This document shows, one piece after another, positions 5,986 to 62,526 of a DNA stretch of 64,000 nucleotides (positions are counted from its first letter, which is position 1; every line of letters starts with the position of its first letter). The DNA lies in the NCBI GenBank assembly GCA_965226585.1, contig OZ245366.1, positions 487,423 to 551,422 on the forward strand, written 5' to 3'. The notes beneath the pieces were generated by a model that saw only the letters and a list, made by a program, of their open reading frames with translations, ran no database searches and was not told where the DNA came from. Both the position numbers and the translations under genes were made by a program. Source of the stretch: Thermodesulfobacteriota bacterium (GTDB lineage Bacteria; Desulfobacterota_D; UBA1144; Nemesobacterales; Mycalebacteriaceae).

Positions 5986-7896
5986 ATGAACGGAGAAAAA
6001 ATCTGCAACGTTATTGTGATAGGCGGCGGGCACGCGGGCTGTGAAGCCGCGCTTGCGGCGGCGCGCATGGGGCGCAAAACACTTCTGCTTACGGCAAATA
6101 TAGACACAATCGGCGTTATGTCATGCAACCCGTCCATCGGCGGGGTTGGCAAAGGGCATATCGTGAGAGAGATAGACGCCCTCGGCGGCGAGATGGCTAA
6201 AGCCGCAGACGCAAGCGCGATTCAATACAGAACACTCAACACACGCAAAGGCGCGGCGGTGCGCGCCACCCGCTCTCAGGCGGACAGACAGGTGTACAGA
6301 GCGCATATGCGCCGGGTTCTTGAAGAGTGCGAAAATCTTGACATAAAACAGAGAATGGTGGACGGATTTCTTGTTTCCGGGGATGAGGTGAAGGGCGTGA
6401 AAACAAGCCTCGGAGAAACCTTTTTCTCTGACTCCGTTGTCGTTACGCCGGGAACTTTTCCGAACGGGCTTATACACGTTGGAGACGAACGCTACTCTTC
6501 GGGACGCGCCGGGGAAAAAGCGGCGATGGAGATAACCGGCTCATTCAAAGACCTGGGGCTTGAAGTGGGCAGACTCAAAACCGGAACGCCGCCCCGCTTT
6601 GACGGCAGAACAATACGCTGGGACGCCCTTACAGAGCAGAAAGGCGATGAAAATCCAAGACCGTTTTCTTTCTCAAACACCCGGACAGGCATCAGCCAGA
6701 TGTCGTGCTACATCACGCACACAAACGGGAAAACGCACGAAGTTATCAGAAAAAACCTTTCCCGCTCGCCCCTCTATTCTGGCGTGATAAGCGGCGTGGG
6801 TCCGCGCTACTGCCCGTCCGTTGAAGATAAAATTGTGAAGTTTCCCGACAAAGACCGCCACCAGATATTTCTTGAGCCGGAGGGCAGAAACACCTACGAA
6901 GTCTATCCAAACGGCATATCAACCAGCCTTCCGCTTGACGTGCAGACGGAGATGTCCAGAACGATAGAAGGGCTTGAACAGGTTGAAATAATGCGCCCCG
7001 GATACGCGGTGGAATACGATTTTATAAACCCGACACAACTGAACTCGGCGCTTGAATGCAAACGCGCGCGAGGGCTTTTCTTTGCCGGGCAGGTGAACGG
7101 AACAACCGGATACGAGGAAGCCGCCGGGCAGGGGATTGTGGCGGGAATAAACGCCGCTCTGCACTCGCGCGGCGACAGCCCCTTTGTGCTTGACCGCTCA
7201 GACGCCTACATCGGAATCATGATAGACGACCTTGTTACAAAGGGCGTTGACGAGCCATACAGGATGTTCACTTCAAGGGCGGAATACCGCCTTGTTCTGC
7301 GCGAAGACAACGCAGACATCAGACTTATGGAAAAAGGACACCGCGCGGGGCTCATAAGCGATGAACGCTACGAGCGGCTTGTCATCAAAAAACACGCGCT
7401 CAAGAGTGAAGTGGAAAGACTTGAACAGACCCGCTGTGTTCCCGGAAGCCCGGCGGATTTGCAACTGAAACAGATGGGCTCATCGGCGCTGAAAAAACCG
7501 CAGTCGCTCGCAGAGATTCTCAGAAGACCCGCAATCACTTACTCTGAACTCGCCCTTTTTGACACCGTGTCCGCCGAACTCGCCGGTTCAGACACCGCCG
7601 CGCAGGCGGAGATGCAGGTTAAATACGCGGGCTATGTGAAGATGCAGACGGAACAACTCGGCAGGTTCAAACGGTTTGAACGCATGTCCATACCGGAAAC
7701 CTTTGACTACGCCAAAGTGTCCGGGCTTTCCAAAGAGATAGTTCAGAAACTTTCAAGCGCGAGGCCGCGCTCTCTCGGGCAGGCGGGGCGAATATCAGGC
7801 GTTACGCCCGCCGCCGTTTCGGTTCTTATGCTGCACCTGAGGAAAAATCCCGCAAGGGAAGGTCAGTCAACCATCTCGACATCTTCTTCCTCGTAG
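5986..7896 (+). CDS. mnmG: tRNA uridine-5-carboxymethylaminomethyl modification enzyme MnmG (GidA)
   Basis: The FAD-binding N-terminus NVIVIGGGHAGCEAALAAARMG and the MnmG-specific motifs are present. I placed the start at M36 of the track ORF (ATG at 5986). The upstream 35 codons are not conserved. Confidence 0.93.
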   Translation: MNGEKICNVIVIGGGHAGCEAALAAARMGRKTLLLTANIDTIGVMSCNPSIGGVGKGHIVREIDALGGEMAKAADASAIQYRTLNTRKGAAVRATRSQADRQVYRAHMRRVLEECENLDIKQRMVDGFLVSGDEVKGVKTSLGETFFSDSVVVTPGTFPNGLIHVGDERYSSGRAGEKAAMEITGSFKDLGLEVGRLKTGTPPRFDGRTIRWDALTEQKGDENPRPFSFSNTRTGISQMSCYITHTNGKTHEVIRKNLSRSPLYSGVISGVGPRYCPSVEDKIVKFPDKDRHQIFLEPEGRNTYEVYPNGISTSLPLDVQTEMSRTIEGLEQVEIMRPGYAVEYDFINPTQLNSALECKRARGLFFAGQVNGTTGYEEAAGQGIVAGINAALHSRGDSPFVLDRSDAYIGIMIDDLVTKGVDEPYRMFTSRAEYRLVLREDNADIRLMEKGHRAGLISDERYERLVIKKHALKSEVERLEQTRCVPGSPADLQLKQMGSSALKKPQSLAEILRRPAITYSELALFDTVSAELAGSDTAAQAEMQVKYAGYVKMQTEQLGRFKRFERMSIPETFDYAKVSGLSKEIVQKLSSARPRSLGQAGRISGVTPAAVSVLMLHLRKNPAREGQSTISTSSSS

Positions 7897-7991
7897 AATT
7901 CTCCCAGTTCGTTCAATTCCACGTCGCCGACATCCATTTCTTCAGGGTCGTCGTTTCCCGCGTAAACCTGCTCATCAGGGTCCTCAATCAT
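7863..7991 (-). CDS. Possible very acidic 42-aa micro-ORF overlapping the 3' end of mnmG on the opposite strand (speculative)
   Basis: The minus-strand ORF ATG...TGA encodes MIEDPDEQVYAGNDDPEEMDVGDVELNELGEFYEEEDVEMVD. It is below the ORF-track size cutoff. No RBS was evaluated. Confidence 0.12.
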   Translation of the reverse strand: MIEDPDEQVYAGNDDPEEMDVGDVELNELGEFYEEEDVEMVD

Positions 7992-8120
7992 ATTGACGAG
8001 GTCTCTGATTCTTTCGTCTCTTGAAGTAGCCACCTCAACACCCCCTGTGTTGTGATTTAACGGACAGAGCCCGTTTCCGCCCCCATAATATTGACGGACG
8101 GGGAAAAATCAACCCTTTTT

Positions 8121-10190
8121 TTAGTCCGCAATTGAAGCGGCAAAATCGTCCGCGCCGGAAGGAAGTCCGCACGTCCCGTCTTCGCACACATAGACAAGCG
8201 TTTTCCCGTTTCCGCCCGCAGAGCATCCGGCGGCAAAAGGGGCTATGTTGCCGGTCTCAGAGCAGTCCGGTTTTTTGAGCAGAACTGTTGCCCCCGGCTC
8301 GTAGTTTTTCGCGAGCGCGTCCGTAACTTTTTCCGCCCCGTCCGTGCCTTCGGCGATAACAACCTCAAATGTTTTTCCCGCGGCAAACTCAAGCGCGCAG
8401 AGAAGCATTCCGTGTGAAGACGGCAGTTTTTCAACCGACAGCGAAAGAGAGCGGGCAATTTTAGCGGCGTCCTCATCGTACCGGTGGTTTCCCGTCAGGC
8501 GGGATATTTTCATCAGGTTGAGAGCCGCAACCGAGTTTCCGCACGGAAGCGCGCCGTCATGAAACTCCTTTTTCCTCACTATCAGACTTTCCGCCCCCGA
8601 CGGGGTGAAGAAAAAACCGCCTTTTTCCTCATCAGAAAAAAGTTCAATCATCTTGTCGTTCAGCCTCATCGCGGTTTTAAGGCGCGAGATGTCAAACCCC
8701 GCTTCGTAAAGCTCAAGCAGTCCCCAGACCATAAACGCATAGTCGTCCAAGTTTCCCCTGATGGCGGCGTCTCCGTCTCTGAATCTGTGCAGAAGTTCAT
8801 TGCCGTCAAACATATTTGCGAGAATGAAATCCGCCGCAGTTTCCGCCGCTTCAACATATTCTTTCCGCCCGAAAGCTCGTCCCGCTTTTGAGAACGCCGC
8901 TATCATCAAGCCGTTCCAGTCGGTCAGAATTTTGTCGTCTTTGTGCGGACGCGGGCGTTTTTCTCTGCGTTCAAACAGCTTTTTCACCGCAGATTCAGTA
9001 AGCCGCTCCGCTTCGGTTTTGTCTGTGCCCGCAGTTTCCGCCGCAAAGGAAAGCGGTTTTGTTCTGTGCGGGATGTTGGTTCCGGGCATTTTTCCGGTCG
9101 CCTCGTCAACAAAGTTCCCGCCGCTTTTTATGGTAAAAACCTCCGCCGCAATGCGGGCTTCATCCGCTCCCGCCGTCTCTCTGAATTCCTCTTCGCTCCA
9201 TAGGTAGAACTTTCCCTCCTCGCCCTCGCTGTCCGCGTCTTCTGCGGAGAAGAACGCGCCGCCTGAAGCGGTCATGTCTCTCATGACGTATTCAAGCGTT
9301 TTTTCCGCGCCGTTTTTATAGGCGGGGTTTGAGGTGGCAAGCCACGCCTCGGTCAGGGCGGCGCAGATAAGCGCCTGATCGTGGAGCATTTTTTCAAAGT
9401 GCGGCACAAGCCACCGGCGGTCGGTTGAATACCTGTGAAATCCGCCCCCGATGTGGTCGTTTATTCCGCCGTCAAGCATGGAGCCGAGCGTTTTTTCAGC
9501 AACTTCAAGGGATTTGGCATCTCCGGTTCTTTTCCAGTGGCGAAGCAGGAATATCAGGTTTTGCGGAGAGGGGAATTTAGGCGCGTCTCCGAAGCCCCCG
9601 AAAACGGGGTCAAAAGCCGCCGCCAGAGTTTCCGCGCCGTTTTTCAGCAGATCCTCATTGCCCATGCGCCCCTCAGACTGCATCACCGCTTGAGAGTCTC
9701 TGATGGCAATCTCAATGTCTCCGGCGGATTTTTCTATGTCTGCGCGCCGGGAACTCCACACCTCTTTTATCTGCGGTATCAGTTCAACCATTCCGGCTCT
9801 GCCGTATCTGTTGTGTTTCGGTATGTAGGTTGCCGCGAAAAACGGTTTTTTGCCGGGCGTCATAACAACATTCAGGGGCCATCCGCAGTTTCCTCTTGAA
9901 ACTATCTGGCACACGCTCATCAGAACCCCGTCAATGTCCGGACGCTCTTCGCGGTCAACCTTGATGGAGATGAAAACATCGTTCATCAACTCCGCCACTT
10001 CCGGGTCTTCAAAAGACTCCTTTTCCATCACGTGGCACCAGTGGCAGGTTGAGTATCCGACTGAAACGAGAACGGGCTTGTCTTCGCGCGCGGCGGTTTC
10101 AAACGCCTCTCCGCACCAGGGGTACCAGTTCACCGGGTTGCCCGCATGCTGGAGAAGATAAGGGCTTTTTTCTTTTGAAAGTCTGTTCAT
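8121..10190 (-). CDS. Thioredoxin-domain protein of the DUF255/YyaL family (N-acylglucosamine-2-epimerase-like C-terminal domain)
   Basis: The N-terminus ([17 protein letters not shown]...[18 protein letters not shown]) is the DUF255 thioredoxin-like signature. The long alpha/alpha-toroid-like C-terminus is typical of YyaL. Confidence 0.8.
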
Positions 10191-12444: not shown

Positions 12445-12477
12445 TTGACACAATATGCGTTATGTTATAACATAACG
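12445..12477. promoter_or_regulatory. Divergent znuA / zur-znuCB promoter region with a perfect 20-bp Zur-box-like palindrome
   Basis: TTGACA at 12445-12450 is followed by CGTTATGTTATAACATAACG (12458-12477; 10+10 perfect inverted repeat with a TGTTATAACA core). This resembles Fur/Zur-family operators and lies between znuA and zur. Confidence 0.6.
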
Positions 12478-14548: not shown

Positions 14549-15970
14549 ATGAAAACGTTTTTTGCTTTTATTCTAATGGCTTCCGCGATATTCGCGGCTG
14601 TTCCGCCCGCGTCCGGTGAAATAACCATAGACGGGCATATTGATATGAAACTCCACATGGACAAAGTCATAGACTCAGCCGAAGCAACCGGCGAGGTGCT
14701 TGAGGGCTATACCGATTCCCATATCTACACGATATTGCACCTGCCGTGGGGTTTTTCCCTTGAAACGGAAGTGCTTCTTGAGGGTGAACCGTGCGGACAC
14801 GACCACGGGCACGGCGAAGAAGAGGAGGAAGAAGAACATGCTCATGAAGCGGTGTGCAGAACAGCGGTAGAGGAGCATGAAGAAGAAGCAGCTGAGCCAC
14901 ATTCACACGCCGACCCTCCGGCAGCAGCACAAGCACAAGAAGAAGAAGAGGAAGTGGAATTAAGGAAACTTTCTTTCTTCGGTGACCATGTTTTTACGCT
15001 TCAAACCTTTATGCTGAAATACACACGCGCTTTCGGTCCCGTAAAATGGTCTCTCTACGGCGGCAAGTTTGTTCCCGTTGTCGGAATAGACGCGGAATCC
15101 CTGCCGGGTGTGTATTCATACCGCGCTCTCCACGAATACGATTTAGACCCGAAAATCGGTTTAGGCACAAAGTTTGTCGTGAACGCGGAGGATTTTGGAA
15201 CGCACCAGTTGAATACATCCCTCTTTACGGCGGACACAACCGCTTTCAGCGATAACGGCTCGGGCGACCGCCTCAAAAGGGCGGACGGTGGACCGTCCAA
15301 CAACGGCGACCTTACATCCGTGGTTTTTTCGCTTGGCGGAAAAAATTTCTACACCCTGAGAGACGGCTTTTTTGCCAACTTTCTGGAAGGTTTTTCATAC
15401 CGCATCGGCTATGCGAACCAGAAGAAGCAGAGCATGGCATATGAAGGTGAATATGATGAACACATCGGACCGCCGACCACAGGAGACGAAACGAGATACA
15501 CATTTTCAATGGGGCAGAAACGGAACTTTACGGAAAATCTCTCCCTCACACTCAAGACCGAATACATCAACATAAACAACTACGGGGGCGAAACGGGACG
15601 ATTGCGCAATGCGTGGACGGTGGCAACCGCTTTTGACTGGAAGCGGTGGACGCTTGCGGGTTCTTATTCCTCAACGGACAACAGGTCATCCACTTTCACC
15701 AGAAGGAGGATAGCGATAGAGACGCAGGTAAGGGATAGGACACCGAGAGAAAACGTGCTTCCGCCGGAAGAAGATACGGGGAGCCTTGGCGCGACTATTT
15801 ACAGCTTTTCCCTCTCACGCAAACTTGGCGGCGGCGGAGCGAAACTTGGTGTCGGCTACCAGAGTGTGAAAGAAGAGGGCGAAACAACCGGCAGAATTGG
15901 AATGCTCCTCAGTTACAGCGGCTCGTTTTTCTCAGGCTCCGCAGAGAGCCACGAAGGGCACGACCACTAA
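14549..15970 (+). CDS. Secreted/outer-membrane protein with a His- and Glu-rich low-complexity metal-binding region, co-transcribed with znuCB
   Basis: It has a signal peptide (MKTFFAFILMASAIFAAVPPASG). A tract GHDHGHGEEEEEEEHAHE...EEHEEEAAEPHSHAD...QEEEEEVE and a C-terminal SHEGHDH are present. The rest has the alternating pattern of beta-barrel strands. It begins 13 nt after znuB, with an RBS. Confidence 0.5.
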   Translation: MKTFFAFILMASAIFAAVPPASGEITIDGHIDMKLHMDKVIDSAEATGEVLEGYTDSHIYTILHLPWGFSLETEVLLEGEPCGHDHGHGEEEEEEEHAHEAVCRTAVEEHEEEAAEPHSHADPPAAAQAQEEEEEVELRKLSFFGDHVFTLQTFMLKYTRAFGPVKWSLYGGKFVPVVGIDAESLPGVYSYRALHEYDLDPKIGLGTKFVVNAEDFGTHQLNTSLFTADTTAFSDNGSGDRLKRADGGPSNNGDLTSVVFSLGGKNFYTLRDGFFANFLEGFSYRIGYANQKKQSMAYEGEYDEHIGPPTTGDETRYTFSMGQKRNFTENLSLTLKTEYININNYGGETGRLRNAWTVATAFDWKRWTLAGSYSSTDNRSSTFTRRRIAIETQVRDRTPRENVLPPEEDTGSLGATIYSFSLSRKLGGGGAKLGVGYQSVKEEGETTGRIGMLLSYSGSFFSGSAESHEGHDH

Positions 15971-15973
15971 TTT

Positions 15974-16354
15974 TCAGATGAGATATATGGCAAGAAAGGC
16001 GAAGAAAAATCCCGTCAAATAAATAACCACGGATACCGCCACCGTCCACAAACTCAAGGCGCGCAGACGCATGCACGAGCGCGCCGCCTCAGGGTCTGCC
16101 GGGCACGGGGCGTTTCTCTGCGAGTATCTCGCCACGGCGGCGATAAGAAGCATCACCCCCGCGACTGAAAAAACCCACACCTTGTGAGTGGAAAGCCAGA
16201 TAAGCCCCGGAAACGCGCTGACGAGCCCCGCCGTAACGGCTCCCATCCCGATTGCGGCAAGAAGCGAGGGAAGGGCGCAGCAGATTAGAGTTCCCGCAGA
16301 TGTGAACAGTGAGAAAAAGGGCAAAGCCGTGTCTTTCAGCCCTGCCTGTCTCAC
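15974..16354 (-). CDS. MerT-like inner-membrane metal transport protein
   Basis: It has three TM segments, a vicinal Cys pair in TM1 (LICCALP; compare MerT CCLGP) and a second Cys pair in the cytoplasmic loop (APCPADPEAARSC). Its size is about 125 aa. Confidence 0.6.
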   Translation of the reverse strand: MRQAGLKDTALPFFSLFTSAGTLICCALPSLLAAIGMGAVTAGLVSAFPGLIWLSTHKVWVFSVAGVMLLIAAVARYSQRNAPCPADPEAARSCMRLRALSLWTVAVSVVIYLTGFFFAFLAIYLI

Positions 16355-16749
16355 CGCCTGCCCTCTTTTTTGTAGAACGATATGGACTCAACCGAGTATC
16401 CGGCATCGTTCACAAGTTTGCTGATTTTCTTATCAGACAGTTTCTTTCTTTTCTTCATGTAGATGTTGATAAAACTGCGTTTCAGGTTGACATCCACATC
16501 TTCAACCGCGCCGGTTTTGAGAAAAACCTTGCGTATGGAACGCGCGCAGAAATCGCACACAAGCCCCTTCACCCGCACATGAACTATGTTTCCCGAAGAC
16601 ATGGGTTTGGCGTTTGCCTGTTTCTCTTTCTTTTCTTCCGAGTGGTCGTGTCCTCTGCTTCCGGAATGGTCTGCGTTTGCGGCTCCGGTGAGGCAAACCG
16701 CCGCCAGAATAAACGCCGCAACAAAAGTTCGTATCGCTGTTGTTTTCAT
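16351..16749 (-). CDS. MerP-like periplasmic heavy-metal-associated (HMA) domain protein with a His-rich N-terminal segment
   Basis: A signal peptide is followed by DHSGSRGHDHSEE, and then an HMA fold with a metal-binding VCDFCA motif (a variant of GMTCxxC). Its stop overlaps the merT-like start (ATGA). Confidence 0.65.
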   Translation of the reverse strand: MKTTAIRTFVAAFILAAVCLTGAANADHSGSRGHDHSEEKKEKQANAKPMSSGNIVHVRVKGLVCDFCARSIRKVFLKTGAVEDVDVNLKRSFINIYMKKRKKLSDKKISKLVNDAGYSVESISFYKKEGRR

Positions 16750-16759
16750 GGTTTTCCCC

Positions 16760-17398
16760 CTAAAACCGCCTGATAAAGTTCAGGGTCAGTTTTTCGCTAA
16801 AACTATATCCTACCTCAACAAGAGATTTCCCCTTAAACAAACGGACAACCGGCGTTATATCAATGTCTTTGTTTTCTCCGCCCTCAAAACGCTGGGTTGC
16901 ATCAACCATCAGCCATGTGTGAAGGGCTCCGTATTCCGCCACATACGGGGCGATTCCCGCTCTTGCGGAATGAGTAAAAAACTTTCCCGCGTCTCCAAGC
17001 GTCCACCCGCGACTTTCATAACGCGCAAAAAGCCGCCGCGTTTCCCAGTCCACAGCCGCGCCACCGAAAACGGCGGGAAAATAACGGTCTTCATAACGCC
17101 CGCCGCCCGCGCCCAGTTTTATGTAGAAGTTCGCCTGCGAGCCGATTTTGTTTATCCGCCTGATAAGAAAATTGGCTTGAGCCACCGCGCCCCGAAAATC
17201 ATTGCGCCTCAAATGGACCATCCTCAAGCCCAGCGAATGCCGCGCTGTGGGCGAGTAGTGGATGTGGAGCGAGGTGTTGTCTGCGTTGTGAAGTTGCATC
17301 ACAGTCCACCCGCCCGGATATGAAACGGGTCTTGCAAGCGCGGAAAAAGGAGCGAACGCGAATACGGTGAGAATTAGAAACAGTTTTATATTCCGCAA
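16760..17398 (-). CDS. Small outer-membrane beta-barrel protein (unknown), first gene of the merP/merT-like operon
   Basis: It has a TTG start with an AAGAGGA RBS and a signal peptide ending ALA. There is an alternating amphipathic pattern and a C-terminal aromatic (…NFIRRF). It lies 10 nt upstream of the merP-like gene. Confidence 0.5.
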   Translation of the reverse strand: MRNIKLFLILTVFAFAPFSALARPVSYPGGWTVMQLHNADNTSLHIHYSPTARHSLGLRMVHLRRNDFRGAVAQANFLIRRINKIGSQANFYIKLGAGGGRYEDRYFPAVFGGAAVDWETRRLFARYESRGWTLGDAGKFFTHSARAGIAPYVAEYGALHTWLMVDATQRFEGGENKDIDITPVVRLFKGKSLVEVGYSFSEKLTLNFIRRF

Positions 17399-17445
17399 AT
17401 CTTTTCCTCTTTTGGAACGGCGGGGCGGGGAAATAAAGGGAAAGG

Positions 17446-17523
17446 TGGCGCGCCCGAGAGGATTTGAACCTCTGACCCTTGGCTCCGGAGGCCAATGCTC
17501 TATCCGGACTGAGCTACGGGCGC
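17446..17523 (-). tRNA. tRNA-Arg (anticodon CCG), CCA encoded
   Basis: The reverse complement folds as GCGCCCG-TA-GCTC-AGTCCGGATA-GAGC-A-TTGGC-CTCCGGA-GCCAA-GGGTC-AGAGG-TTCAAAT-CCTCT-CGGGCGC-G-CCA. The anticodon loop is CU-CCG-GA. Confidence 0.9.
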
Positions 17524-26945: not shown

Positions 26946-28037
26946 TCACCCCATCTCATACCCCGTACTCCTTCCGCCTTCTTTGCTTTTCTTTAATATC
27001 TTCAACTCAATCAGCGCGTTAATATCCCTTTGCGCGGTGTCTTGGGAGCATTTTCCCATCTTTGCCCACTTTGACGAAGTGAGTTTGCCCTTGAAGTTTC
27101 CGTCCAGAAGCAAGTTCAAAATCTTTGTCTGCCTGCTGTTGAAAGGCACCTCAGCGTATTCCTCCCAAAAACGCGCCTTATGCAGGATTGCCGACAGCAT
27201 TTTGTCGGAACCCGCTATGGAACGTTTGAGACAACCCAGAAACCAACTCAGCCATTTTGTAATATCAACTCCGCTGTTTTGCGTTTCCTCAAGCTGTCTG
27301 TAGTAGTCCTGCCTCTCTTCCATTATCTGCGTGGACATACTGTAAAAACGTTGCGATGTTTCCTCGGAACGGGCAAGAGCCATCTCCGCTATCGCCCTTG
27401 TTGTGCGCCCGTTCCCGTCATCAAACGGGTGGATAATTACAAACCACAGGTGAGCAACCGCCGCTTTAATCACCGGATCCATTGAAGACGGCGAGTTAAA
27501 CCACGAAAGAAAATCATCCATCTCCTTCGGAACCCGCTCTGCGGGCGGAGCAACAAAATGAACCCTCATCCTTCCCTCGCGCCCCGATACAACCTGAACT
27601 CCGTGAGTACGCCACTTTCCGGTTGTTATCTTGTGAAAACCACTGCGCCCGTCCGGGAAAAGAGAAGCGTGCCAGCCGAAAAGCCGCTTTTTTGTGAGCG
27701 TTTTGTCAAAATTTGTTGTGGCGTCAATCAGTATCTCCACTATGCCGTCCACCTCACGCCCGTACGGTTTGCCCTCATACGTATCTATTCCCAAACGCCG
27801 CGCAACGGATGAACGAACCTCCTCAACATCAAGAAACTCCCCCTCAATTTCACTGGTTTTGATAATCTCTCCCGACAGAGTCCGGAAAGCGGCGTCACGC
27901 CTCAGATTAAAACCGAGACCGCTCATGCGTCCCAGCAAAAGCCCCTGCGTGCGGTGAACCTCCGCCAAAAGAGCAGACAACTCGCCGTCATCCCACTTCA
28001 AAAGGGGCCAACCCTTTTCTTCCCATAAATACGGCAT
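26946..28037 (-). CDS. Fic family protein (DUF4172-type N-terminus, C-terminal winged-helix domain)
   Basis: It carries the Fic motif HPFDDGNGR and an inhibitory-type motif TSEIEGE, with a C-terminal wHTH (KILNLL...SSKWAKMGKCSQDTAQRDINAL). I placed the start at MPYLWEE (ATG at 28037, RBS AGAGG). The 14-codon extension in the ORF track overlaps the operator-like repeats. Confidence 0.85.
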   Translation of the reverse strand: MPYLWEEKGWPLLKWDDGELSALLAEVHRTQGLLLGRMSGLGFNLRRDAAFRTLSGEIIKTSEIEGEFLDVEEVRSSVARRLGIDTYEGKPYGREVDGIVEILIDATTNFDKTLTKKRLFGWHASLFPDGRSGFHKITTGKWRTHGVQVVSGREGRMRVHFVAPPAERVPKEMDDFLSWFNSPSSMDPVIKAAVAHLWFVIIHPFDDGNGRTTRAIAEMALARSEETSQRFYSMSTQIMEERQDYYRQLEETQNSGVDITKWLSWFLGCLKRSIAGSDKMLSAILHKARFWEEYAEVPFNSRQTKILNLLLDGNFKGKLTSSKWAKMGKCSQDTAQRDINALIELKILKKSKEGGRSTGYEMG

Positions 28038-28046
28038 ATTGTGAAC

Positions 28047-28212
28047 CTCTGCGGAGATTAATGTTGCTATTCTCCGCATATTTTGCGGAGAATATAGCCC
28101 GCATTCACCGCAAAATCAACCTTAATCTCCGCACATTCTGCGGAGATTAGCAATTTCTATGACTCATAATTTGGGGGTTTTATGAGTCATAGAACAGTTT
28201 CCTATGACTCAT
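28047..28212. promoter_or_regulatory. Cluster of three perfect palindromes plus half-sites in the Fic 5' region
   Basis: The first palindrome is ATTCTCCGCA-tattt-TGCGGAGAAT (28069-28093). The second is TAATCTCCGCA-cattc-TGCGGAGATTA (28123-28149), with a half-site TGCGGAGATTA (28050-28060) overlapping the Fic RBS. The third is CTATGACTCATAA-N10-TTATGAGTCATAG (28157-28192), with a third CTATGACTCAT copy at 28202-28212. Confidence 0.55.
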
Positions 28213-61044: not shown

Positions 61045-62526
61045 ATGGGAAACCCTACAGGATTTATGCTCCACAACAGGAGAACGGGAAAAGACCGAGA
61101 CCCTTCCGAAAGAGTTTCGGACTGGGATGAGTTTCACGGTCATCTTTCAGAAAAAGACCTTGGCGTTCAGGGTTCAAGATGTATGGACTGCGGAGTGCCG
61201 TTTTGCCAGACGGGCGATATTCTCGCCGGAATGGCGACCGGGTGCCCGGTCTACAACCTGATTCCCGAATGGAACGACCTTGTCTACAAGGGCAAATGGC
61301 GCGAGGCTCTCGGCAGGCTTCACAAAACCAACAACTTTCCGGAATTCACCGGCAGGGTTTGCCCCGCGCCGTGCGAAGGTTCCTGTGTTCTCGGCATAAA
61401 CGAGCCGCCGGTAACCATCAAGGCGATAGAGTGCGCGATAGTGGACAAGGGCTTTGAGGAGGGCTGGATAGTTCCCGAACCTCCCTCCCGCCGCACGGGT
61501 AAAAAAGTGGCGGTTGTGGGCTCCGGTCCCGCCGGGCTTGCGTGCGCGGCGCAACTGAACAAAGCCGGACACAGCGTTGTTGTCTATGAGAGAGACGACC
61601 GCATTGGCGGTCTTTTGATGTACGGGATTCCCAATCCGCACCTTGACAAAAAGGTTGTGGAAAGGCGGGTGGACATTCTCAAACGGGAAGGCGTTGAGTT
61701 TGTCGTGAGCACGGAGATTGGAAAAGACATAGAGCCTCGAGACCTTGTGAGGGATAACGATGCGGTTGTTATCTGCAGCGGGGCGACAAAGCCCAGAGAC
61801 CTTGACGTTGAGGGCAGAAAATCAGAGGGCGTGTATTTCGCGATGGATTTTTTGCGGGGAAACACAAAAAAGCTTCTGGACAGCGGCTTCAAAACCGCGG
61901 GTGACATATCCGCCGAGGGCAAAGACGTTATCGTTCTGGGTGGCGGAGACACCGGAACGGACTGTGTTGCGACCTCAATGAGGCACGGATGCAAGAGTCT
62001 TCTGCAGTTTGAGATACTTCCCATGCCTCCCGAAAAAAGGGGCGCGGAAAACCCCTGGCCCCAGTGGCCCAGAGTGTACAAACTGGACTACGGGCAGGAA
62101 GAGGCGATGGCAAAGTTCGGCGGCGACCCGCGCAAATACCGCGTTCTCACAAAAAGCATTGAAACGGGCGGCGGCAGAGTAAAAGGGCTTAACACCGTGC
62201 GTATAGAGTGGAAACAGTCTGCGGACGGGCGTATGGAGATAGAGGAACAGCCCGGAACGGAAGAGTTTTTCCCCGCCCAGCTGGTTCTGCTCGCGCTCGG
62301 GTTTCTGGGTCCCGAACAGGGGCTGATAGACAAACTGGGCTTGGATAAAGACGACCGCTCCAACATCAACGCTCAATACGGCAAGTATCAGACCAGTGTT
62401 GAAAAAGTGTTTGCCGCCGGAGACGCGAGAAGAGGGCAGAGTCTTGTTGTGTGGGCGATAAACGAGGGGCGCGAAGCCGCCAGAGAGTGCGACCGCTACC
62501 TTATGGGTTCAACCGAACTCCCTTGA
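61045..62526 (+). CDS. gltD: Glutamate synthase small subunit (NADPH)
   Basis: It has N-terminal Fe-S Cys clusters and an FAD/NADPH Rossmann (KVAVVGSGPAGLACA), at 493 aa. Confidence 0.9.
   Translation: MGNPTGFMLHNRRTGKDRDPSERVSDWDEFHGHLSEKDLGVQGSRCMDCGVPFCQTGDILAGMATGCPVYNLIPEWNDLVYKGKWREALGRLHKTNNFPEFTGRVCPAPCEGSCVLGINEPPVTIKAIECAIVDKGFEEGWIVPEPPSRRTGKKVAVVGSGPAGLACAAQLNKAGHSVVVYERDDRIGGLLMYGIPNPHLDKKVVERRVDILKREGVEFVVSTEIGKDIEPRDLVRDNDAVVICSGATKPRDLDVEGRKSEGVYFAMDFLRGNTKKLLDSGFKTAGDISAEGKDVIVLGGGDTGTDCVATSMRHGCKSLLQFEILPMPPEKRGAENPWPQWPRVYKLDYGQEEAMAKFGGDPRKYRVLTKSIETGGGRVKGLNTVRIEWKQSADGRMEIEEQPGTEEFFPAQLVLLALGFLGPEQGLIDKLGLDKDDRSNINAQYGKYQTSVEKVFAAGDARRGQSLVVWAINEGREAARECDRYLMGSTELP

Follow-up and report, generated by a model that had tools for sequence, protein, structure and literature searches.

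Among described systems, those that come closest to the locus considered here are the MerT/MerP pair of mer operons and the CopB-CopC-CopD trio of the Pseudomonas syringae cop and E. coli pco operons. The mer operons have the gene order merT-merP and lack an outer-membrane barrel. CopB-CopC-CopD, which is induced by copper, combines a barrel in the outer membrane with a copper chaperone in the periplasm and a small inner-membrane protein believed to import copper. Here, we analyze a 64,000-nucleotide stretch of contig OZ245366.1 from a Thermodesulfobacteriota bacterium (the whole stretch is called the window below), and in particular a cassette of three genes that encodes a small outer-membrane beta-barrel, a secreted HMA-domain protein and a MerT-like transmembrane (TM) protein. 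The cassette belongs to a widespread, unannotated operon, a putative MerTP-like soft-metal relay that most likely functions in copper-stress handling. Its genes, taken from the list of open reading frames (ORFs), are as follows:

16760-17398, minus strand: gene 1, outer-membrane barrel, 212 amino acids, TTG start
16351-16749, minus strand: gene 2, HMA protein, 132 amino acids
15974-16354, minus strand: gene 3, TM protein, 126 amino acids, GTG start

Since genes 1 and 2 are separated by a 10-nt gap and genes 2 and 3 overlap by 4 nt, the three would form one operon. An earlier sequence-only reading of the window, made by a model, had placed three minus-strand genes at these positions, and all three are indeed intact ORFs.

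The resemblance to MerT/MerP (PF02411 plus PF00403) lies in the small protein with three TM segments, the vicinal cysteines in the first of these, the Cys pair in a loop, and the adjacent secreted HMA protein with its CxxC site; wherever a regulator is linked to the cassette, control of expression by a sensor of metal excess is a further point in common. The differences are nonetheless substantial. Similarity to the mercury proteins is sub-threshold, the loop cysteines are spaced C-x9-C rather than C-x5-C as in MerT, and the HMA gene precedes the TM gene. In addition, the cassette is not accompanied by MerA, its regulators are mostly of the CsoR or CueR type, and it includes an outer-membrane barrel of its own.

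The closest functional analogue is CopB-CopC-CopD, even though the folds and families of all three proteins differ: the chaperone of the cassette is an HMA protein rather than a CopC, and the membrane protein is MerT-like, with Cys ligands, rather than a CopD. The E. coli CusCFBA system, which together with CopA exports Cu(I) and Ag(I), likewise handles copper stress across the whole envelope, by means of a small Cu(I) chaperone in the periplasm and an exit through the outer membrane. The cassette, by contrast, encodes neither an RND pump nor a membrane-fusion protein and shows no evident energy coupling, and its barrel is a small, monomer-type protein of 12 strands rather than a TolC-like trimer. 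The loci that carry a CsoR repressor also recall CsoR-regulated copZA: the repressor family, with its C-H-C ligands, and the TACCC...GGGTA promoter operator are shared, and an HMA protein is part of the operon; in the cassette, however, the HMA protein is secreted rather than cytoplasmic, its partner is the 126-amino acid MerT-like protein rather than a P-type ATPase, and a barrel is included. Finally, the predicted barrel finds its best structural matches in the monomeric 12-stranded porins of the KdgM/NanC type and the COG4313 channels, and a COG4313-type protein takes the place of the barrel at one locus (L011, see below). The barrel nevertheless shows no sequence similarity to these channels, has invariant motifs of its own and is always linked to metal-handling genes.

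A conserved three-gene cassette

Database searches recovered 665 homologues of the TM protein, none with a Pfam annotation, and 314 homologues of the barrel. They are labelled 'hypothetical', with the exception of one member of the TM family that appears in UniRef as 'Mercuric ion transport protein'. An exhaustive profile search of 1.84 billion proteins gave 924 barrel clusters at 50% identity, and a scan of one genome per species identified at least 522 carriers. The carriers belong to the Alpha-, Beta- and Gammaproteobacteria, the Bdellovibrionota and the Dadabacteria, with single metagenome-assembled genomes (MAGs) from Verrucomicrobia and Spirochaetia; the closest named homologues come from Candidatus Dadabacteria, including a Mycalebacterium MAG, and the window itself appears to derive from this group.

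The organization of the cassette was compared over a set of 83 loci, with up to 10 kb fetched on each side wherever the contig allows. The order barrel-HMA-TM on one strand is found in 77 of the 83, in several phyla, and the association of the three genes is thus far beyond chance. Five of the six exceptions are cut by contig ends. The sixth is an alphaproteobacterial locus, L011, in which a 300-amino acid outer-membrane protein of the Phenol_MetA_deg/COG4313 type (9099-10001) replaces the barrel and lies between the HMA and TM genes; the cassette at this locus is followed by a CsoR gene and then by an SO_0444-type Cu/Zn efflux permease. That the barrel can be swapped for another outer-membrane protein supports a role as a generic outer-membrane channel.

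Which other genes travel with the cassette? A small secreted protein rich in Cys, Met and His, with weak similarity to CopL, is encoded directly upstream in at least 35 of 73 loci. Apart from a repressor of the CsoR/RcnR family, no conserved partner gene emerged from clustering of the flanking ORFs or from a Pfam census of 145 flanking genes; the census returned CsoR and two CDF proteins, the rest being housekeeping noise, while seed-based searches covered all of the loci. The motif of class-I flavin disulfide reductases is found in the fetched flanks of none of the 83 loci, which argues that no MerA is encoded nearby in any of them.

A more distant variant is found on a Vibrio diabolicus plasmid (L085, NZ_CP069194.1), where the segment at 6281-8416 encodes a TM-HMA fusion with approximately 39% identity. 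Its neighbors are a 'GDCCVxC domain-containing (seleno)protein', a divergent helix-turn-helix regulator and a Tn3-family transposase, so that L085 is a further MerT-like plus HMA variant on a mobile element. The plasmid homologues from Vibrio and Variovorax were set aside as a functional clue, being distant (about 40% identity) and differently organized. No published description of the cassette was found in the searchable literature, in keeping with the remark in the sequence-only reading that it knew of no description of such an envelope-spanning uptake route; one candidate paper proved to concern an ordinary merT:P fusion.

The three proteins

On sequence, membership of gene 2 in the HMA superfamily is clear. 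The Pfam HMA model (PF00403) matches over the full domain with 23.6 bits, 1.2 bits short of the 24.8-bit cut-off, and the CopZ-type models of NCBIfam (NF033795) match at E=3.7e-8, below their equivalog cut-offs. The closest solved relatives are the metal-binding domains of Cu-ATPases (E=9e-8 to 2e-6, with the CxxC aligned), while MerP is found only at E=1e-3 and the MerP equivalog model (TIGR02052) gives 16 bits against a cut-off of 92.55. The protein begins with a signal peptide ending ANA/D (the hydrophobic N-terminal signal and its cleavage site were judged by eye), followed by a His-rich linker, DHSGSRGHDHSEE, and the metal site GLVCDFCA. Secretion to the periplasm, as in MerP, is thus predicted, and similar leaders occur across the HMA family. 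The earlier description of gene 2 as a periplasmic HMA-domain protein with a His-rich stretch and a VCDFCA site agrees with these results. Across 80 loci the site is conserved as G[LM]VC[D/A/S]FCA, and the His-rich linker is present in 28 of 78. The variants of the site sort with the surrounding genes: CDFC, the form in the window, occurs with CsoR and CueR loci, CSFC accompanies the ZntR-like ones, and CAFC is seen where a multicopper oxidase or CopA gene adjoins the cassette.

The barrel was modeled with AlphaFold2 from an alignment of 48 sequences, giving 12 beta-strands behind the signal peptide at a mean confidence (pLDDT) of 92. Searched with Foldseek against solved structures, the model matched outer-membrane barrels exclusively, the top hits being the 12-stranded KdgM (4pr7, E=5e-5) and a COG4313 channel (4rl8, E=2e-4), with TM-scores of approximately 0.5 for matches of these types. 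The signal peptide ends ALA/RP and the C-terminus, ...NFIRRF, closes on an aromatic residue, so that both ends of the protein fit an antiparallel outer-membrane barrel of 12 strands. The sequence-only reading was thus right to call a small outer-membrane beta-barrel here. By sequence, however, the protein belongs to no described outer-membrane protein family, with no Pfam or NCBIfam match at E<=1. The family has an invariant RPVSYPGG motif immediately behind the signal peptide, and its further invariant motifs are HxH, IAPY and LHTW. Because the conserved residues H44, H46, H159, M163, D116, E118, E127 and E194 lie on the less hydrophobic strand parity, they are predicted to face the lumen, and we infer from them a metal-selective pore. 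A relationship with CopB was considered and rejected: an HHalign comparison of the barrel profile with the CopB-like protein of locus L037 gave a probability of 1.5%.

The TM protein has three hydrophobic segments, with an invariant C25-C26 pair in the first (GTLICCALP in the window, GTLxCCALP in the family) and a charge distribution that fits an N-terminus inside the cell. Two further invariant cysteines, C84 and C94, lie in the loop between the second and third segments, which is predicted to be cytoplasmic because it is strongly positive, with a mean of 4.8 Lys plus Arg residues. The layout that had suggested MerT to the sequence-only reading, with three TM segments, a CC pair in the first and a Cys pair in the cytoplasmic loop, is therefore present, and all four cysteines are invariant.

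Membership in the MerT family, on which that reading had staked its proposal, is another matter. The window protein has no match to Pfam MerT (PF02411), and its sole NCBIfam match, MerTP_fusion, scores 12.3 bits against a cut-off of 180, so that it stays below the curated thresholds. Among 45 members of the TM family, MerT-type models are the only ones matched recurrently: MerTP_fusion in 23, MerT/CopZ selenoprotein in 13, Pfam MerT in 9 and MerT PRK13751 in 6. All of these matches, which were judged on E-values and not member by member against cut-offs, are weak, with best values from 2e-4 (NCBIfam MerTP_fusion) to 1.4e-3 and a best Pfam MerT value of 5e-4. When the family was aligned by HHalign with a MerT reference alignment built from database proteins labelled PF02411, 83 columns fell in register, CC on CC, at a probability of 23%. 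The TM protein is thus likely to be a distant relative within the MerT superfamily that has the MerT layout, and not a MerT. By the refuting condition that the sequence-only reading set for itself, its MerT call falls as a statement of family membership.

Regulators and copper genes linked to the cassette

A repressor of the CsoR family (PF02583, E=2e-24), with C-H-C ligands, is directly attached to the cassette in 10 loci, as the first gene, the last gene or a divergent gene, and its best NCBIfam match is the copper sensor RicR. In six of these loci (L013, L018, L025, L029, L036 and L063), no other metal gene was recognized nearby; in two others, L011 and L019, an SO_0444-type Cu/Zn efflux permease lies behind csoR. 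The operator pattern TACCC-N3-11-GGGTA occurs 17 times in 1.3 Mb. Eleven of the sites mark the 5' end of the cassette, giving TACCC-N5-GGGTA boxes there in 9 of the 10 loci with an attached CsoR, including cases in which csoR comes last. They agree with CsoR boxes from the literature, namely ATATACCCCTNAGGGGTATAT (PMC3902906) and TATACCCnnnnnGGGTATA and ATACCCCnnnGGGGTAT (PMC5057107).

MerR-family regulators adjoin the cassette in only four loci. Two of them, in L032 and L057, are divergent and of the CueR type, with a score of 138 bits where the CueR model requires 147.4; both have a CPGxxxxxCPI loop, a TTGACC-dyad promoter and a Ser at the equivalent of position 77, the position in CueR that selects monovalent ions. 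The other two, in L024 and L042, are three-Cys regulators of the ZntR/MerR type with a perfect dyad, ACCTTGGAGTATACTCCAAGGT, and L024 lies within an RND/CDF/ArsR island. Judged by these types, every regulator attached to the cassette elsewhere (CsoR, CueR-type or ZntR/MerR-type) is a sensor of metal excess. Copper genes adjoin the cassette in two further cases: in L037, genes for a multicopper oxidase and a CopB-like protein lie immediately upstream, and in L059 a CPC-type P-type ATPase is encoded 13 nt downstream. A generic scan for palindromes upstream of all of the cassettes revealed no further shared operator.

The ZntR/MerR-type loci show an unusual arrangement, in that the regulator runs in frame into the signal peptide of the barrel, with no stop codon and no obvious internal start (L024, 8572-9657; L042, 4069-5124). 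In two database proteins of about 360 amino acids, P0393 and P0424, similarity to the barrel profile begins only at about residue 157, consistent with the same regulator-barrel fusion, in which a cytoplasmic DNA-binding domain would be joined to a cleavable signal or anchor and an outer-membrane barrel.

A different pattern is seen in eight loci of another Dadabacteria-type group (L028, L035, L043, L053, L066, L071, L079 and L084), which have a four-gene version of the cassette. Here, a conserved promoter-like block, CTTGAAnnTTGAAC...ATAGTTTATAAT, lies approximately 60 nt upstream of the Cys-rich gene, and a TACCCAnnnGGGTA-like site recurs 2.2-3.8 kb downstream in several of the four-gene loci.

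The upstream region in the window

The region in front of the cassette in the window is short, and contains the following features:

17399-17445, minus strand: leader of 47 nt between tRNA-Arg(CCG) and the barrel start codon, with a GAGGA ribosome-binding site
17446-17523, minus strand: tRNA-Arg(CCG), 47 nt upstream of the barrel start codon

A promoter scan of the minus strand detected no promoter-like site in the leader, nor is there a Zur box or a CsoR box, and Rfam models matched nothing but tRNA near the cassette, with no riboswitch or regulatory RNA. The sequence-only reading had proposed a search for CsoR-type operators here, and none was found; with neither a box nor a csoR gene in the 64 kb, the window offers no sign of the CsoR regulon to which 9 or 10 of the other loci would belong. 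The regulator of the window cassette could be encoded outside the 64 kb.

The closest complete relative, L005 (compared over 8371-8513), has the same order of a uracil-DNA glycosylase gene, tRNA-Arg(CCG) and the cassette. Between the tRNA and the barrel, however, it carries a promoter-like TTGACA-N17-TAGTTT sequence and the gene for the Cys-rich secreted protein, and the window has neither. The contrast between this arrangement and a mere 47 nt suggests that a deletion has occurred in the window between tRNA-Arg and the barrel, and transcription of the cassette may there be read through from the tRNA.

A possible route for the metal

How might the cassette handle its metal? Very probably it is an envelope module for soft-metal handling that is tied to metal excess. 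Our fuller reading, to which we give a little less than an even chance, is that the cassette forms a trans-envelope thiolate relay for a soft metal and acts as a metal-stress device. The genes, their predicted folds, the conserved gene order and the linkage to regulators and operators in other genomes are shown by the analysis; which metal is handled, its passage by thiolate exchange and the way in which it moves are what we infer, and each deserves its own weight. Cu(I) has the slightly better side of an even chance as the main substrate, and it is the best-supported candidate because of the types of regulator, the operator sequences, the copper genes nearby and the nearest relatives of the HMA domain. 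In some lineages, the cassette seems to have come under sensors of the Zn/Cd type.

In such a relay, the 12-stranded barrel, with conserved His, Met and acidic residues predicted on its lumen side, would pass the ion over the outer membrane, and the secreted HMA protein would then hold it by the two cysteines of its CxxC site. The MerT-like protein would take the ion over the inner membrane by thiolate exchange, from the CC pair in its first TM segment to the Cys pair in the cytoplasmic loop. Transfer inward across the inner membrane is a tentative proposal, somewhat short of an even chance. It is favored because MerT/MerP import their metal and because importers induced by metal are known inside resistance operons, as with MerT/MerP, PbrT and CopB-CopC-CopD. 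Inward transfer would clear the periplasm and supply the cytoplasmic sensor and efflux machinery.

The sequence-only reading had proposed an importer of the MerTP type, turned to a thiophilic metal other than mercury and equipped with its own outer-membrane channel, as a route of uptake. The architecture finds support, as does the idea of a MerTP-like device for a thiophilic metal other than mercury, while membership in MerT and the link to zinc do not, and uptake in the nutritional sense is at odds with the fact that all linked regulators elsewhere are of types that sense metal excess.

Several observations weigh against a copper-stress relay of this kind. It seems counter-productive for excess metal to induce an importer when the operon supplies no cytoplasmic sink. 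The His-rich linker and the Asp within the CxxC would also suit Zn or Cd, two loci (L024 and L042) use a ZntR-like sensor, and the C-H-C CsoR of Bradyrhizobium responds to Zn and Cd as well, albeit more weakly (PMC5057107). Adjacency to znu genes arose in two different arrangements, one in Dadabacteria and one in a Rickettsiales MAG. The homology to MerT is weak, as the HHalign result above indicates, and the AlphaFold2 model of the TM protein is of low confidence (pLDDT 68); a Foldseek search of the PDB with this model returned only noise, with a best E-value of 2.4. Within its 64 kb, the window itself encodes neither CsoR nor CueR, and the cassette there has no CsoR box, recognizable promoter or upstream Cys-rich gene. 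Finally, a regulator or operator can be recognized in only about 14 of the 83 loci, so that the application to the window is an extrapolation from the family.

Alternatives

If the operon responds to excess, perhaps its metal moves outward. In the alternative that survives best, though it is still somewhat unlikely, the HMA protein would accept Cu(I), handed over for instance by CopA, in the manner of CusF, or by a MerT-like protein that works in reverse, and pass it to the outer-membrane channel, with oxidation or dilution outside the cell as the sink. It is easier to understand why a cell under metal stress would make an outer-membrane channel of its own if that channel is an exit, and the operon is self-contained, wholly devoted to the envelope and without a cytoplasmic sink. 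The regulators all point to excess, the cassette of L059 shares an operon with a CopA-type ATPase, and that of L037 lies behind the multicopper oxidase and CopB-like gene; moreover, a thiolate-exchange relay should in principle be reversible. On the other hand, no energy-coupling component is encoded, and induction by excess does not in itself imply export, since metal-induced importers such as MerT, PbrT and CopD are common. To our knowledge, every characterized protein of the MerT superfamily imports. A bolder form of the idea, which we consider less probable again, is an energy-independent relay over both membranes, in which Cu(I) would leave down its chemical potential and oxidation outside would serve as the sink.

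A second alternative keeps the relay but changes its substrate, which in this lineage would be a divalent thiophilic metal in excess, such as Cd, Zn or Pb. The perfect dyads and ZntR/MerR-type regulators of L024 and L042, the island around L024, the Zn and Cd response of a C-H-C CsoR (PMC5057107) and the Cu/Zn efflux permeases behind csoR in L011 and L019 can all be read in this way. Nevertheless, L024 and L042 carry CSFC while the window carries CDFC, as CsoR- and CueR-type loci do; links of the copper type outnumber the divalent ones by about 14 to 2, and the HMA domain has its nearest relatives among Cu(I) domains. A divalent substrate is accordingly a decidedly unlikely choice.

Zinc uptake, working with ZnuABC under Zur control, was suggested by the position of the cassette, and can be judged from the znu region itself. 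The single Zur box in the window is as follows:

12459-12476: Zur box in the 44-nt znuA/zur intergenic region, perfect palindrome GCGTTATGTTATAACATAACGC, with the 18-nt core GTTATGTTATAACATAAC

The core is unique in the 64 kb even at three mismatches, and the same 64-kb scan detected no Zur box upstream of the cassette, where the sequence-only reading had proposed to search, or upstream of the tRNA-Arg. The znu/zur genes adjoin the cassette in four of the 83 loci, namely the window, L005 and L006, all from Dadabacteria, and L017, a Rickettsiales MAG with another arrangement. In all four, a Zur-like site is present between znuA and zur only, never upstream of the cassette, and the znu operon is always convergent with the cassette, so that the two share no promoter. 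The cassette thus shows no sign of membership in the Zur regulon, either by a box at its promoter or by co-transcription with znu. The His-rich linker and the Asp inside the CxxC, which would also speak for zinc, are not conserved in the family; 79 of the 83 loci have no znu genes nearby, and no linked regulator is a sensor of scarcity. Because the two independent juxtapositions with znu are slightly above chance, we keep zinc uptake as a rival, albeit an improbable one.

Could the cassette instead encode a true MerT/MerP mercury pair that has lost its reductase or has merA elsewhere in the genome? The MerT-like hallmarks, the sub-threshold matches to MerT-type models, the single UniRef label and the presence of MerP among the solved relatives of the HMA domain would fit. 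However, the window proteins miss every curated MerT and MerP cut-off, the gene order is reversed relative to merT-merP, the reductase motif is missing from the fetched flanks of the 83 loci, the regulators are mostly of the CsoR or CueR type, and the cassette always comes with an outer-membrane barrel, unlike mer operons; a mercury pair is thus very improbable. We conclude that the cassette is not a mer remnant, nor, probably, a zinc importer. Least probable of all is that the TM protein is not a transporter but a thiol-disulfide relay, like the DsbD and ScsB systems that give protection from copper, and keeps the HMA cysteines reduced. Its invariant pairs of cysteines at either face of the membrane and the need of an HMA protein for reduced thiols in the oxidizing periplasm would suit such a role, but vicinal cysteines within one helix form a poor redox couple; models of CcdA, DsbD or thioredoxin-like proteins were matched by none of the family members, whose consistent matches are to MerT-type models.

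Other genes in the window

Upstream of the cassette, the end of the gene for a family-4 uracil-DNA glycosylase directly abuts the tRNA-Arg. On the far side, as the sequence-only reading had noted, lies the zinc-uptake operon, here found to be arranged tail-to-tail with the cassette; it consists of zur-znuC-znuB and a gene for a 473-amino acid protein rich in His and Glu, with znuA divergent from zur. That reading had also reported merA and merR to be absent from the 64 kb. This was confirmed, and extended to csoR: no tblastn match to MerR or CsoR and no class-I redox motif were found within the window, and the sole ORF of the flavin disulfide-reductase type (61045-62526) was ruled out as MerA, being GltD-like.

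The 473-amino acid protein (14549-15970, plus strand) begins with a signal peptide and contains a tract rich in His and Glu, GHDHGHGEEEEEEEHAHE; its C-terminus, HEGHDH, is also His-rich. Because its gene starts 13 nt after znuB, it is probably part of the Zur-controlled operon. No Pfam, NCBIfam or PDB sequence match was found, and among the loci a homologue is present in L006 only; the protein may be an undescribed zinc-regulated outer-membrane protein. Unrelated to the cassette are two proteins with Fic/DOC domains, both encoded on the minus strand (100-1536 and 26946-28079), the second of which has an N-terminal DUF4172.

Significance

Neither the barrel nor the TM protein has a Pfam or NCBIfam family, although the operon occurs in the representative genomes of at least 522 species. 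As for annotation, these genes are probably mislabelled by the name 'mercuric ion transport protein', and their proximity to znu is no reason to assign them a role in zinc uptake. Since cultured carriers exist, such as Eilatimonas milleporae and Methylophilus glucosoxydans, the hypothesis of a copper-stress relay is directly testable.

If the less probable, energy-independent exit relay were true, it would be the mirror image of mer, in which reduction inside the cell drives import, and would define an undescribed, self-contained class of copper homeostasis. It would then be a main copper-stress device of many small-genome aquatic bacteria, among them Dadabacteria, Rickettsiales-like Alphaproteobacteria and Bdellovibrionota.

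For the copper-stress relay as we propose it, a MerT-type thiolate relay would have found a second use beyond mercury resistance, together with an outer-membrane channel dedicated to it. In lineages with a visible regulator, classical copper sensors would target the cassette directly, which suggests that it may be a missing piece of copper, or more generally soft-metal, handling in the many environmental Gram-negative bacteria that are without well-studied systems of the Cus kind.

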